Source: Bradyrhizobium sp. (GTDB taxonomy: Bacteria; Pseudomonadota; Alphaproteobacteria; Rhizobiales; Xanthobacteraceae). From it: a stretch of 64,000 nt of DNA. The DNA lies in NCBI RefSeq assembly GCF_035701725.1, contig NZ_DASSRP010000254.1:10909-74908 (forward strand), read 5' to 3'. Every line of letters begins with the position of its first letter. The stretch's first letter is position 1. Position numbers and translations under genes: made by a program. Shown one piece after another: positions 18,033 to 23,617 of this stretch. The notes below the pieces were generated by a model that was not told the DNA's origin, did not search any database, and saw only the letters and a list, made by a program, of their open reading frames with translations.

Positions 18033-19640
18033 CTAGGAAGGTTTGTCCTCGCCGACCAACGCGCGTCGAAGCCTTCGGATAATGACGCCGCGGGCGCGGT
18101 CGTCGGCGGCCGCTTGGACCTGATCGTTGATATCGAGCAGTAACTTCGACATCTCGTTGTGCCAGTCGAGGTGGGTGACCGCTTCCGGCGCAAGCCGCCG
18201 GCGACGACCGATATCCAGCAAAGATGGCGTGGTACCCGACAGGTCATATATGTCGTCCAGCACCGGCTGATACAGCTTTGCTGCCGGAACAATTCGTTCG
18301 GAAAGGCGCTCGGCGAGTCCCGCGATCGCCTGCTCCTCGCCGTGAACGAGAAAGAGACCTTTCTGAATCGGACGGCGCGCGGCGATCCACCGTGCGATCT
18401 CCAGCCCGTCCGCATGGCCTGAATAGTCGTCCATCATGCGGATGCGGGCCGCGACCTTGATCTCCTCACCCTGGATTCGGACTGCTTTTGCACCGTCCTG
18501 AAGAAAGCGGCCGAGCGTGCCGTGAGCCTGATAGCCGACCAGAAGCACGGTAGCCCGGTTATTCCAAAGCCAGCGCTTGAGATGGTGGCGGATCCGGCCG
18601 GCATCGCACATGCCGCTGGCGGCCATGATGATATGAAACCCAGTCAGTCTGGCGATCGATTTGCTTTCGTCGACGCTTTCGGTAAATCGCAGATGCGACG
18701 AATTGAAAAGCCGGTTGACGTCGGCAGCGGCATCGAGGCTTGCCGCGTGCTTCCGGAACACCTCGGTTGCGTGAATGGCCAGCGGCGAATCCAGGAAAAT
18801 GGGAGCCGGTGCAATCTCGCCACGTTCCATCAGATCGACCAGATCGACGATCAGTTCCTGGGTTCTTTCGACCGCGAAGGCTGGAATCAGGAGCGCGCCC
18901 CTGGCCGCAGCCGCCTCGCGCACCTCGGCCGCAAGTCGAGCTCGGCGTTGTTGCGGCGTTGTGACTTCGCGAATTCTGTCCCCGTAGGTCGCCTCCGAAA
19001 TGACGTAGTCGAACCCCGACGGTGCCTTCGGATCCGGCTCGAGCAGCTTGGCGTCCGGTCCGATATCGCCTGAGACGAGAAGGCGCAACGGCGGCCGGCT
19101 GGAATTCTCGTCTTCGATTTCGATCTCAATCGAGGCGGATCCGAGCAGGTGGCCGGCATTCCAGTAGCGAGCGCGGACACCGCGTATGGCGCTGACCCAT
19201 GTTTCGTACTCGACAGGCCGAAAGGATTCCAGCGACCTCACGGCGTCGGCCTGGGTATAGATCGGGTTGACCTCCGCCCTGCCGCGCGCCGAATTGCGCC
19301 GATTGAGCGCAACGACTTCCGATTCCTGAATGCTCCCGGCGTCTGGCAGCATATAGGAGCAGAGATCGATCGTTCCTTGCGTGGCCAGGATCTTGCCGGC
19401 AAAGCCGTCACGCACGAGTTTCGGCAGCAATCCGCAGTGATCGATATGGGCATGGGTCAAAAGCACGGCGTCGATATCCGCAGGCCGAAATGGAAACGCC
19501 CCGTAATTCAGCTCCTTGAGTGTCTTCTGCCCCTGAAACAGCCCACAATCGATCAGCAAGCGTCCCGAACCGGTTTCGAGCAGGAAGCATGCGCCGGTTA
19601 CGGTGCGCGCTGCACCACAAAATCGGATCGTTGCGGTCAT
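18033..19640 (-). CDS. Metallo-beta-lactamase/beta-CASP fold nuclease (COG1236, RNA-processing type)
   Basis: THAHIDHCG (HxHxDH), NAGHLLGS, SGDIG, EATYG, PAFAVERTQ, ASGMCDAGRIRHHL, YSGHAD. Confidence 0.92.
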   Translation of the reverse strand: MTATIRFCGAARTVTGACFLLETGSGRLLIDCGLFQGQKTLKELNYGAFPFRPADIDAVLLTHAHIDHCGLLPKLVRDGFAGKILATQGTIDLCSYMLPDAGSIQESEVVALNRRNSARGRAEVNPIYTQADAVRSLESFRPVEYETWVSAIRGVRARYWNAGHLLGSASIEIEIEDENSSRPPLRLLVSGDIGPDAKLLEPDPKAPSGFDYVISEATYGDRIREVTTPQQRRARLAAEVREAAAARGALLIPAFAVERTQELIVDLVDLMERGEIAPAPIFLDSPLAIHATEVFRKHAASLDAAADVNRLFNSSHLRFTESVDESKSIARLTGFHIIMAASGMCDAGRIRHHLKRWLWNNRATVLLVGYQAHGTLGRFLQDGAKAVRIQGEEIKVAARIRMMDDYSGHADGLEIARWIAARRPIQKGLFLVHGEEQAIAGLAERLSERIVPAAKLYQPVLDDIYDLSGTTPSLLDIGRRRRLAPEAVTHLDWHNEMSKLLLDINDQVQAAADDRARGVIIRRLRRALVGEDKPS

Positions 19641-20557
19641 GCTTTGACTCCCGGACAGCCATCGCCGTCCAACTCGCGGCGCAGCGCAGCCGCAAAAATG
19701 TCGTCGAGGGGAATTGCGTTCGTGGGGTGGGATACACTCGTGGTCGATCGGACGGAGCGAATTCCGGCCGCTGTGAAGCTGCTTGTCAGCGCTGCCGGGA
19801 AAAGCGCGTGCGTGATGACGGCATCGACTGTCGTTGCGCCTGCCGCGGCGAGCGCCCTTGCGCAGGCGATCAAGGTGGCGCCGGATGAAACGATGTCATC
19901 GACGAGCAATGCCGGCCGGGCCGCCATCGATGCTGGATCGGAGAAGGATATCTCCACCTCTTTGTCCCCGTGCCGAACTTTTTGTGCAACCGTCCAGGAC
20001 AGCCCGAGGCGCCCAGCGAGGTCGCTGACCCATGGTTCGGACTCCTTGTCGGGGCCGATTACGATGGTGGCGGGGTCCAGGCCCGATCGGCGCAACGTGT
20101 TTGCAATTGCCGGCATCGCGGACAGATTTTCCGCCTCGATGCCTGGGAAGATGGTGCGGATATCGTGGGTCCGATGCAGGTGAGCATCGGTCGTGATGAT
20201 GCGATCGGCGAGGCCGGTGAGAAGTCGGCCGATGGCTTTCTGACTGATCGCCTCACCCTCGCTGAAGGCGACGTCCTGGCGCATGTAGCAGAGATAAGGC
20301 GCCAGCAGCACGAGCCGTCTCGTTCCCGCCCGCCGCAGCGCTTCGCACGCGAATAACAGTGCGATCAATTTGTCGTTTGGCTGATCGAGTGACGCATAAA
20401 GAATGGTGGTAGGTGCGGAAGGTCCCACCGTCACCCGCGTTTCCCTGTCCGGAAACCAATGCAAGGCGATTTCATGGAACGGGATGCCGAGCTGCGAGGC
20501 GAGGCGCGAGGCATTGCCGGCACTGTCTGGCAAACTCTGCATGACGGCATGATTCAC
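19637..20557 (-). CDS. prs: Ribose-phosphate pyrophosphokinase-like protein (divergent subfamily)
   Basis: [17 protein letters not shown] flexible loop, PRPP-binding [13 protein letters not shown]; PDKESEPW replaces canonical PDxGG; 4-nt overlaps with both neighbours. Confidence 0.85.
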
Positions 20558-22098
20558 GGCCTGGTCTCGCCTGGCAGCAGGGGCAAGTTCCCGATCGCAT
20601 AGCCGGTGGCGGCTCTCGAGTTCGTCACCGCAAGATCGCGCTCGGACGAGCCAAACGTGTAGATCCGATAAAGCGGCTCGCCGGCCTCGACACGGTCGCC
20701 GATCTTTTTGAACAAGCGGATGCCGGCGCCTTTTTCGAGCGGCGCGCCGGCGGTTCGCGCCAGACGGTTCATTTGCAGACAGTCGATGCCAGAGACCACG
20801 CCGTCGCGGTCGGCCAGCACGTCATGGGTCAGTTCTCCGAGTTGCGTTCGACAATTTGACGGACCTTGCGCGTCGATGATCTTGTGCATCTGTCTGAGCG
20901 CTGCGCCGCTTTCGAGCAGATCGCGGGCGCGGGCGTAACCGGCACCGCCGCGAAGCCGGGGGTCGTATTCCAGGAGATGGGCTGCCAGCCGCAGGGATTT
21001 TTCCCGCAGATCAGTCGGAGCGGCCGGCTCGTTCGCGAGCACGGCCATGACATCCTGGGCTTCGAGAATCGGCCCGATTCCGTTTCCGATCGGCTGGCGG
21101 CCATCGGTGGTAATCACCTCCACCGCGATGCCAAAGCGGTCGCCCACGAATTCGAACAGTTTGCGGAGCCGCATCGCTTCCGCGCTATTGACGATCTTGG
21201 TGCTCGGGCCGACGGGAATGTCGATCAGGAGGTGGGTGGAACCGGCAGCGATCTTTTTTGACATGATGGACGCGACCATCTGCTCGCGCGTGTCGACGCC
21301 GAGCGGTCGCTCCACGGAGATCAGGATGTCGTCGGCCGGCGACAAATTGACGTGCCCGCCCCAGACTAGACAGCCGTTGCACGCCGCGACGATCGCTTTC
21401 ATTTCTTCGGCGCCGACATTGACCCGCGCCAGCACCTCCATGGTATCGGCGGTGCCGGCAGGAGAGGTGATGGCGCGTGAGGAGGATTTTGGGATCGGCA
21501 GTCCGTGCGCCGCCACGATCGGCACGACGACCATCGACGTGCGATTGCCGGGAATGCCTCCGATGCAATGTTTGTCGACGACGATCGGATCGGCCCATTT
21601 CAGCTTCGTCCCGGCACCGGCCATGGCGCCGGTCAGCGCGATCAGTTCGTCACTGGTCATGAAGCTGGCCGACCCGATCAGGAACGCCACGATCTCCATG
21701 TCGGAATAGCGGTAGTGTGTGAGGTCCTGGACAATGGCAGCGATCTGCCGCGCATCCAGCGCCTGCCCACGGATCTTGGACCTCACGGCTTCGAGGCTTT
21801 CGGGCGGTGTGGCCGGCGTAACTGTCACCGAGCTGCCGACTGGCTCGGCGAAGCGTCGCAACGCAGGCTCGGCGAGGCCGATTTCGTCGGGCCCGACGAG
21901 TGTATCGTCGTCGGTGATGAGAAGGGTAGCAAGCATGGCTTTCGAGTCGCAGCGCAATTCGACCCGGCTAAATCCACGGAAGATCTCCGCCCGCAATGCC
22001 TTTGATTGCCGGGAAAGCACCACGACGTTCTCCCGGCCGGTATCGAGATTGACGCTGCGAATTCGCAGTCGAGGGCGGTTGGTTTCAGCGGATCTCAT
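20554..22098 (-). CDS. Archaeal-type AMP/NMP phosphorylase (thymidine phosphorylase family, long N-terminal domain)
   Basis: [13 protein letters not shown] and [18 protein letters not shown] signatures (AMP-phosphorylase type, not the DKHSTGG of DeoA); extra N-terminal domain. Confidence 0.85.
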
Positions 22099-22152
22099 GA
22101 GACAAACCGGTTTTGAACGTCCAAGAATCTAAGCGGTTGCGGGTCCGGCCGC

Positions 22153-22474: not shown

Positions 22475-22639
22475 ATGTCAGTGTTGGTTTCACGGTTTTT
22501 CCGGGACGAAAGCGGTGCGACGGCAATCGAATATTGCCTCATTGCCGCCGGCCTCAGCATCGTGATTCTCACGGCGGTCAACGGCATCGGCTCGACGCTC
22601 AGCGGCAAGTTCACGTCGGTCAACGCGTCGTTGAAATAG
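22475..22639 (+). CDS. pilA: Flp/PilA type IVb (Tad) pilin
   Basis: 54 aa; RFFRDESGATAIEYCLIAA Flp motif followed by a hydrophobic helix; AGGAG RBS upstream. Confidence 0.9.
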   Translation: MSVLVSRFFRDESGATAIEYCLIAAGLSIVILTAVNGIGSTLSGKFTSVNASLK

Positions 22640-22651
22640 CAGCTTCCGCTT

Positions 22652-23617
22652 CTATCCTGCTTTTCTTGCCCGCGCGGAACCACGTGCGGGCTTTTTTGCG
22701 GGCGCCGCTCTGGTGTCGGCTTTGGCTTCTTCTTTCGCCGCTCGTTTGCCGCTGATCGGCAGCAGCATCTCGCGCTGGCCTTCGATGCGTTTCTTCGGCT
22801 TCTTGCCCTTTGCCTTGGTGGCCGGGGCGGGCGCCTGCCGCTCGGTGGCGAGGCTGCGCTTGAGCGCATCCATCAGGTTGATCACATTGCCGGCGGTCTT
22901 GGGGGTGGCCTTGGCGGTGGGACGAATACCTGCGCGCTTTTTGTTGATGAGATCGATCAGCGCGGTCTCATAGTGATCCTCGAACTTCTCGGGTTCGAAC
23001 GAGGCGGATTTCTTTTCCACGATGTGCTTGGCAAGATCCAGCATGTCTTTGGTGACTTTGACGCTCTGGATGTCGTCAAAATACTCGTTTTCGTTGCGCA
23101 CCTCGTAAGGGTAGCGCAACAGAGTTCCCATCAGGCCCTGACCCAGCGGTTCCAGCGCCACGATGTGCTCGCGATTGGTGAGCACCACGCGGCCGATCGC
23201 AACCTTGTTCATGCTGCGAATGGTTTCGCGGATCACGGCAAACGCGTCGTGACCTACCTTGCCGTCGGGCACGAGGTAATAGGGGCGGATCAGGTAGCGG
23301 CTGTCGATATCGGCCTTGGGAACGAATTCGTCGATTTCGATCGTATGGGTGGATTCCAGCGCGACGTCTTCGAGTTCTTCCTTCGAAACCTCGATGTAGG
23401 TATCGGTATCGACCTTGTAGCCCTTGACGATATCCTCGGAGGCGACTTCCTCGCCCGTATCGGCATCTACCTTGGCATATTTGATGCGGTGGCCGGTCTT
23501 TCGGTTGATCTGGTTGAAGGAGACCTTCTCGGTGTCCGACGTCGCGGGATAAAGCGCGACAGGGCAGGTGACCAGCGAAAGCCGCAGGAAACCCTTCCAA
23601 TTGGCACGGGGGGCCAT
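22652..23617 (-). CDS. ku: Ku protein (prokaryotic NHEJ)
   Basis: MAPRANWKGFLRLSLVTCPVALYPA, RIKYAKVD, IVKGY, IEIDEFVP, RPYYLVPD, VINLMDALKRS, basic tail; GAGGAG RBS before ATG 23617. Confidence 0.96.
   Translation of the reverse strand: MAPRANWKGFLRLSLVTCPVALYPATSDTEKVSFNQINRKTGHRIKYAKVDADTGEEVASEDIVKGYKVDTDTYIEVSKEELEDVALESTHTIEIDEFVPKADIDSRYLIRPYYLVPDGKVGHDAFAVIRETIRSMNKVAIGRVVLTNREHIVALEPLGQGLMGTLLRYPYEVRNENEYFDDIQSVKVTKDMLDLAKHIVEKKSASFEPEKFEDHYETALIDLINKKRAGIRPTAKATPKTAGNVINLMDALKRSLATERQAPAPATKAKGKKPKKRIEGQREMLLPISGKRAAKEEAKADTRAAPAKKPARGSARARKAG
22668..22697 (+). terminator. Probable terminator of pilA, embedded antisense in the Ku 3' end
   Basis: GCCCGCGCG...CGTGCGGGC stem followed by TTTTTT. 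Confidence 0.5.

Follow-up and report, generated by a model that had tools for sequence, protein, structure and literature searches.

A low-oxygen operon of Bradyrhizobium that may return phosphoribosyl groups from RNA to PRPP

Why should a bacterium keep an archaeal-type nucleotide phosphorylase, and keep it beside a second copy of a housekeeping enzyme? The question is raised by a three-gene operon in a 64,000-nt stretch of a Bradyrhizobium sp. genome (assembly GCF_035701725.1, contig NZ_DASSRP010000254.1, positions 10,909 to 74,908), hereafter the window. The operon encodes a phosphorylase of the NP-II superfamily, a PRK07199-type paralogue of phosphoribosyl pyrophosphate (PRPP) synthase (PRS) and a ribonuclease (RNase) of the β-CASP metallo-β-lactamase type (Table 1). 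From comparative analysis of the encoded proteins, we think it on balance probable that this operon, predicted to be induced in microoxia, recycles phosphoribosyl groups, passing from RNA through nucleoside monophosphates (NMPs) and ribose-1,5-bisphosphate (R15P) to PRPP.

By family model, the phosphorylase falls within TIGR02645, ‘putative thymidine phosphorylase, archaeal type’ (706.7 bits, cut-off 434.6), and within NF003338 (685.2 bits, cut-off 434). It lies far below the cut-offs of the DeoA and PyNP models TIGR02643, NF004490 and TIGR02644 (129.6 vs 570.7, 188 vs 269 and 186.4 vs 409 bits, respectively). Its best solved relative is the AMP phosphorylase of Thermococcus kodakarensis (TkAMPpase; PDB 4GA5, 331 bits), with an alignment that begins at residue 11. 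Residues 11–98 align with the TkAMPpase N-domain, so the extra N-terminal domain reported in an initial annotation of the window is real. Overall identity to TkAMPpase is 41%, and it rises to 74% across seven active-site segments, for which E. coli thymidine phosphorylase (TP) reaches 41%.

Alignment with TkAMPpase and E. coli DeoA showed that the common NP-II residues are kept (K84, H85, R171, S186 and K190 in E. coli numbering), and that the window enzyme shares every AMP-phosphorylase-specific change that separates the Thermococcus enzyme from thymidine phosphorylase. The segment GGIPGNRT, with a Pro insertion, Asn for Asp and Arg for Val, is common to both; SSRAITSxAGTAD replaces the TP loop SGRGLGHTGGTLD, as in TkAMPpase; and Phe210 of E. 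coli TP is replaced by Lys (K301), again as in TkAMPpase. The motif DKHCIGG occupies residues 175–181, and a 13-residue motif residues 206–218. The predicted assignment of the enzyme as AMP-phosphorylase-like, not DeoA-like, is thus supported, and the TIGR02645 placing, the active-site changes and the N-domain all agree with the archaeal AMP-phosphorylase type first proposed.

Archaeal NMP phosphorylase converts NMP and Pi to free base and R15P (PMC8376864, PMC9700705). With the same NP-II fold and extra N-terminal domain as the archaeal AMP/NMP phosphorylase (T. kodakarensis TK0352; PDB 4GA4/4GA5/4GA6; TIGR03327), the window enzyme would be expected to catalyse the same reaction. It differs from that enzyme in being bacterial, in lying in a separate clade and below the equivalog cut-off, and in being encoded together with a PRS paralogue and an RNase behind a putative oxygen-responsive promoter. 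Separately, four homologous phosphorylases of 930–1017 aa (P0165, P0171, P0200 and P0240) were seen to carry a LAGLIDADG intein, inserted after the helical-bundle domain and near the start of the catalytic α/β domain.

The fate of the predicted product is indicated by fused homologues, which came to light when 1.8 billion representative proteins were searched exhaustively. Phosphorylase fusions of ~680 and ~600 residues carry an N-terminal PhnN domain (TIGR02322, 172–199 bits, cut-off 156) and are common in Alphaproteobacteria, including Xanthobacter, Azorhizobium, Bosea and Pseudolabrys. In one case, a 724-residue protein, a PRK07199-type PRS (378.8 bits) is fused to the phosphorylase core. 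Both in this PRS fusion and in the shorter PhnN fusions, the partner replaces the N-terminal domain of the phosphorylase. PhnN converts R15P and ATP to PRPP and ADP, given as the known bacterial fate of R15P in the discussion of PMC9700705. Because PhnN makes PRPP from R15P, its fusion to these phosphorylases argues strongly, if circumstantially, that the family produces R15P and that in bacteria R15P is turned into PRPP. In a FastTree phylogeny, two clades, one of PhnN-fused (support 0.998) and one of PRS-linked phosphorylases (0.857), fall inside a 64-tip clade (0.957) that does not contain the Thermococcus enzyme; the direct sisterhood of the two is not resolved.

The archaeal pentose bisphosphate pathway was considered for this genome and rejected, as neither an e2b2 R15P isomerase nor a RuBisCO large subunit was found in the whole assembly. 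The initial annotation had noted that the isomerase and form III RuBisCO are not in the operon, and their absence extends to the assembly; the likeness to the archaeal pathway ends with its first enzyme. Gene content was examined further in 401 evenly sampled Pseudomonadota genomes, with families called above their model cut-offs. The archaeal isomerase exceeded its cut-off in 0 of the 47 phosphorylase-bearing genomes. PhnN is absent from the Bradyrhizobium genome (best match 40 bits, guanylate-kinase-like), which leaves this genome with none of the other known R15P consumers, and in the sample PhnN follows a complementary pattern, being over cut-off in all six genomes that carry the phosphorylase and no PRS paralogue (in two of them as a fusion) versus 4 of the 41 with PRS, against a background of 61/401 (p = 2e-5). 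The E. coli PhnN type (TIGR02322) is found either fused to this phosphorylase family or in place of its PRS partner. PhnN has a guanylate-kinase fold whereas the window partner has a PRS fold; the two would be equivalent in function. The fusions and the complementary presence of PRS and PhnN lend independent support to the routing of R15P to PRPP that had been predicted for the operon.

In Xanthobacter and Bosea, a NadC-type quinolinate phosphoribosyltransferase gene precedes the PhnN–phosphorylase fusion gene by 6–107 nt (loci L086:7058-10046, L087:7161-10043 and L088:3985-6867). Quinolinate phosphoribosyltransferase (NadC) uses PRPP, and the arrangement suggests a pyridine-nucleotide role for the PhnN-fused clade.

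The PRS paralogue is a member of NF005537 (PRK07199; 375.7 bits, cut-off 322), a family named ribose-phosphate diphosphokinase, whose cut-off was reached in 0 of 14 control genomes. It falls below the class I housekeeping model NF002320 (111.8 bits, cut-off 297) and the class III model NF002095 (160.3 bits, cut-off 296), and the nearest solved structure is the class III PRS of M. jannaschii (1U9Y, 100 bits). Its catalytic residues are F35/D37/E39, R93-Q-D, D124-A-H126, P169-D170, K193-V-R195 and D220-D221...T228. Across 42 family members, the PRPP-synthase hallmarks FPDGE, RQD, D-x-H, PD, the K-x-R loop and DDxxSxGxT are conserved at 90% or more.

The initial annotation had described this protein as a divergent homologue, with PDKESEPW and FPDRE as its departures from the PRS consensus. 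The quoted motifs, like those quoted for the phosphorylase, were all located (FPDRE at residues 35–39, PDKESEPW at 169–176). The term ‘divergent’ is nevertheless an overstatement, since all PRPP-synthase catalytic residues are kept: PDKESEPW belongs to a family-wide PRK07199 signature, GPDxESxxWV, which includes the PD and is at least 90% conserved, and FPDRE is a lineage variant in a family whose majority keeps FPDGE. A further family signature, D-P-HLHR, includes the D-x-H. The canonical Prs of the same genome itself reads FADME, and the M. jannaschii enzyme reads FPDNE and PDKGA, so FPDRE and PDKESEPW alone are no proof of lost function. The paralogue and the M. jannaschii PRS (1U9Y/1U9Z; NF002095) share FPDxE, RQD, the His-containing loop, PDK, KxR and DDIxSxGxT; the paralogue differs in its D-P-HLHR and GPDxESxxWV signatures and in always occurring in addition to a class I Prs. 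That canonical enzyme was found in 42 of 42 sampled genomes carrying the paralogue, and in the Bradyrhizobium genome it is encoded on contig C396 (493 bits on the class I model).

How general is this partnership? A pattern scan in which each species was represented by one genome gave 80 loci, at 51–81% identity, in Alpha-, Beta-, Gamma- and Zetaproteobacteria. In 71 of the 79 loci that were informative, the gene immediately downstream of the phosphorylase is the PRS paralogue, and an RNase gene lies within the 6-kb flanks in 35 of the 80. Among these 35, the RNase directly follows the PRS in 22, and the PRS is absent in five, where the RNase comes right after the phosphorylase (L015, L037, L039 and L059) or upstream of it (L033); another 32 loci have the phosphorylase–PRS pair with no RNase nearby. 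Genome content tells the same story: the PRS paralogue is present in 42 and the phosphorylase in 47 of the 401 genomes, with both genes in 41, PRS only in one and phosphorylase only in six (Fisher p = 2e-48). The conserved core is the phosphorylase and a supernumerary PRS, and the RNase is a frequent accessory, mainly in Alphaproteobacteria. The three-gene unit thus did not hold up as an obligate trio. The direct phosphorylase–RNase order, with no PRS between, was seen in B. aeschynomenes, Ferrovibrio and a Reyranellaceae metagenome-assembled genome (L015:6001-9181; L037:6001-9118; L039:6001-9096; L059:1350-4396).

The RNase contains the Pfam domains Lactamase_B (PF00753), Beta-Casp (PF10996) and RMMBL (PF07521), and all of the motifs HAHIDH, AGH, SGD, SEATYGD, SGHAD and VHGE (metallo-β-lactamase motifs 1–4 and β-CASP A–C) are present; the protein thus has its catalytic motifs intact and includes an RNA-specificity domain. 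It does not reach the aCPSF1, Cas14 or RNase Z equivalog cut-offs (235.7 vs 580.2, 325.5 vs 800 and 18.9 vs 252 bits). The closest solved relative is the Thermus thermophilus ribonuclease TTHA0252 (PDB 2DKF, 3IEK and related entries; 234 bits over residues 8–447), a stand-alone bacterial β-CASP RNase with which it has all metal and β-CASP motifs in common. Unlike TTHA0252, the window enzyme extends ~85 residues beyond its assigned domains at the C-terminus and is encoded in a nucleotide-metabolism operon.

At the DNA level, the three open reading frames (ORFs) are intact and lie on the same strand. The PRS/RNase junction is an unambiguous ATGA overlap at 19637–19640 (...GCATGACC...), and the phosphorylase/PRS junction reads GTGA at 20554–20557, the GTG start lying on the TGA stop (...GCCGTGAAT...). 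The public gene call of the PRS paralogue begins instead at an ATG 15 nt (5 codons) downstream, giving 301 aa. The GTGA is kept in 12 of 14 Nitrobacteraceae relatives and the downstream ATG is not, which favours the 4-nt overlap over the public start. Both overlaps stand, as does the initial description of three translationally coupled genes. G+C content across the region is unremarkable (0.61–0.63), and a convergent MFS transporter gene has its stop codon 23 nt from the end of the operon.

Upstream of the phosphorylase gene lie an FNR/FixK2-type box and a candidate −10 hexamer; from their spacing, we infer a box centre at about −40.5 to −41.5. A single box with one mismatch is not significant by itself (background ~0.13 per 310 nt). 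The window box is, however, near-identical to the published box ATGATCTGGGTCAA, located at −74 of the B. diazoefficiens genes bll3117-bll3116-bll3115, which form one predicted operon (PMC9104804). In a fixK2 mutant, expression was 6.6-fold lower for bll3117 and up to 30.6-fold lower for bll3115 (PMC9104804), and microoxia raises both the transcripts and the protein products of bll3115-3117 (PMC6515984). The low-oxygen link raised by the initial annotation is thereby documented for Bradyrhizobium orthologues. The B. diazoefficiens operon is orthologous to that of the window, with ~80% identity in Bradyrhizobium loci, the same gene order and the same box; it is covered by expression studies only, with generic annotation and no function assigned. 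The exact published box occurs upstream of the phosphorylase gene in three loci, and a box lies at −55 to −77 in 12 of 14 Nitrobacteraceae loci. Outside this family, FNR boxes are patchy and modestly enriched (28 of 78 loci vs ~10 expected), so oxygen control cannot be generalised. The operon itself is real and widespread, and its proposed function is well constrained. A CRP/FNR-family regulator gene also recurs near the pair in four loci (L009, L044, L048 and L056). The Burkholderia lxa low-oxygen locus was considered as a home of the trio and was not supported, as the lxa literature examined mentions neither the phosphorylase nor the PRS.

Table 1 Genes and candidate promoter elements of the operon, in window coordinates
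Feature	Position	Strand	Length	Remarks
Archaeal-type NP-II phosphorylase gene	20554..22098	-	514 aa	predicted NMP phosphorylase forming R15P
PRK07199-type PRS paralogue gene	19637..20557	-	306 aa	GTG start overlaps upstream stop
β-CASP metallo-β-lactamase RNase gene	18033..19640	-	535 aa	with ~85-aa C-terminal extension
FNR/FixK2-type box ATGATTTGGGTCAA	22153..22166	-		one mismatch to TTGA-N6-TCAA; centre ~61 nt upstream of ATG
Candidate −10 hexamer TAGATT	22126..22131	-		class II FNR-type spacing; read from sequence

Put together, these observations are consistent with the following scheme. Low oxygen would turn on the operon through the FixK2/FNR-type promoter. The RNase, judged by its family, would degrade RNA to 5′-NMPs, and the phosphorylase, judged by the likeness of its active site to that of TkAMPpase, would convert NMP and Pi to free base and R15P with no ATP spent. 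R15P would then end as PRPP through the co-translated PRS paralogue, as the fusions and the complementary gene presence indicate, and PRPP would feed base salvage and the synthesis of NAD, His and Trp at times of restricted growth and respiration. Two forms are conceivable for the conversion of R15P to PRPP. The paralogue may accept R15P directly, doing the job of PhnN on a PRS scaffold, or a putative 1-phosphatase may yield ribose-5-phosphate for the ordinary PRS reaction. Direct use would make the PRK07199-type PRS a new enzyme on the PRS scaffold that forms PRPP from R15P and replaces PhnN without being its orthologue. Three features suggest such a stand-in: the paralogue is a strict partner of the phosphorylase, it is interchangeable with PhnN, and it is an extra copy. 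We put this reading forward tentatively and with more doubt than conviction.

Several points weigh against the recycling scheme, in whole or in part. The phosphorylase scores 481.5 bits on the AMP phosphorylase equivalog TIGR03327, below the cut-off of 535, and ten relatives and fusions score 327–506 on the same model. The complementarity with PhnN comes from six genomes of five genera that are not phylogenetically independent, two of them fusions by definition and one from a genus in which PhnN is usual anyway. A full-text literature search found no enzymology for any bacterial member. The RNase is missing from more than half of the loci, so the nucleotides could have another source than RNA. 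As for the paralogue, its intact FPDxE, RQD, DxH, PD, KxR and DDxxSxGxT fit an ordinary ribose-5-phosphate diphosphokinase, and the chemistry differs, in that PRS transfers a diphosphoryl group to the C1 hydroxyl and PhnN a monophosphoryl group to the 1-phosphate. These last points lead to a more conventional coupling, in which the paralogue is a plain, unregulated class III-like synthase (ribose-5-phosphate + ATP → PRPP + AMP) for low oxygen, and the phosphorylase removes AMP or adjusts the adenylate pool, much as AMP nucleosidase does in E. coli, with R15P dephosphorylated by an unlinked phosphatase or lost. The family-wide retention of catalytic residues, a nearest solved relative that is a true PRPP synthase (M. 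jannaschii 1U9Y) and the NF005537 family name all favour it. It leaves unexplained, however, why PhnN, whose only known substrate is R15P, should be the alternative fusion and genomic partner, and why a second PRS should stand beside the canonical one in every genome, and it needs an additional putative phosphatase. We consider it unlikely, if a serious contender.

A route at the nucleoside level must also be weighed. A phosphopentomutase (DeoB) homologue is encoded on contig C424:506-1396 (53% identical to the E. coli enzyme), so a broad nucleoside phosphorylase could give ribose-1-phosphate, the mutase ribose-5-phosphate and the PRS paralogue PRPP, with no R15P formed; this counts against recycling through R15P. 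The window enzyme is indeed an NP-II superfamily protein, the sole NP-II member of the assembly, and carries the NCBI name thymidine phosphorylase family protein; no DeoA-type thymidine phosphorylase was found in the genome. Yet the AMP-phosphorylase-specific active-site changes, the N-domain and the scores far below the DeoA and PyNP cut-offs fit this route poorly, and the PhnN fusions make sense only with a 1,5-bisphosphate product, which makes it improbable. NP-II phosphorolysis is reversible, and the enzyme might instead run in the synthetic direction (base + R15P → NMP + Pi), or act on the pyridine mononucleotides NaMN or NMN, with PRPP from the PRS trimmed to R15P and nucleotides built or remodelled at low oxygen independently of phosphoribosyltransferases. 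Besides reversibility, the position of the PhnN–phosphorylase fusion directly after a NadC-type gene in Xanthobacter and Bosea speaks for this. However, over the active-site segments TkAMPpase is more similar to the PRS-linked clade (73% identity) than to the PhnN-fused clade (66%), the PRS-linked clade is linked to an RNase and not to nadC, and no enzyme leading from PRPP to R15P is encoded nearby; we regard this last alternative as very improbable indeed. Recycling of phosphoribosyl groups through R15P to PRPP therefore remains the reading that we prefer.

Neighbours of the pair other than PRS and RNase are inconsistent across the 80 loci; a first clustering of neighbours was polluted by opposite-strand shadow ORFs (clusters 3, 4 and 7), which were ignored. 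A cation-transporting P-type ATPase of ~850 aa lies within 6 kb of the pair in ten loci (L019, L020, L028, L030, L034, L037, L064, L067, L077 and L083). In seven gammaproteobacterial loci, a multi-pass membrane protein of ~219 aa is encoded directly after the PRS (L032:8413-9069, L038, L051, L054, L055, L058 and L076), often followed by an HD-GYP-like protein and a short-chain dehydrogenase. In the window itself, a stand-alone Ku gene that encodes a long basic tail (22652-23617 (-); PF02735, 169 bits) is found directly upstream of the operon, and a small Flp-family pilin gene (22475-22639 (+), MSVLVSRFFRDESGATAIEYCLIAAGLSIV...) sits between the operon promoter region and Ku, with no tad/cpa genes near it. 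The Ku adjacency is not conserved among the 80 loci, and a functional link of the operon to Ku, the Flp pilin or the MFS transporter was rejected because none of them recurs beside the pair. A defence-system reading was likewise rejected, as PADLOC gave no matches for the phosphorylase or the RNase; on the PRS paralogue it gave weak matches to the phosphoribosyltransferase loop only.

To our knowledge, R15P is regarded as an archaeal metabolite outside the C–P lyase pathway. If the proposed scheme is true, an R15P-forming NMP phosphorylase would be present in ~10% of sampled Proteobacteria without the archaeal downstream enzymes, in carriers that include rhizobia, methanotrophs, Stutzerimonas and many Burkholderiales. 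A FixK2/microoxia operon that is conserved in Bradyrhizobium, and has so far appeared only in omics tables, would gain a function, the second PRS paralogue would be explained, and thousands of proteins now annotated as ‘thymidine phosphorylase’ or ‘ribose-phosphate pyrophosphokinase’ would have their names corrected. Should the paralogue use R15P, this would be new chemistry for a textbook enzyme family, and direct use would provide about one in ten Proteobacteria with a phosphate-driven route from nucleotides to PRPP that is independent of the pentose phosphate pathway and switched on in oxygen limitation or dormancy. RNA and ribosome turnover would thereby be linked to PRPP and NAD supply in oxygen-starved, non-growing cells such as bacteroids.

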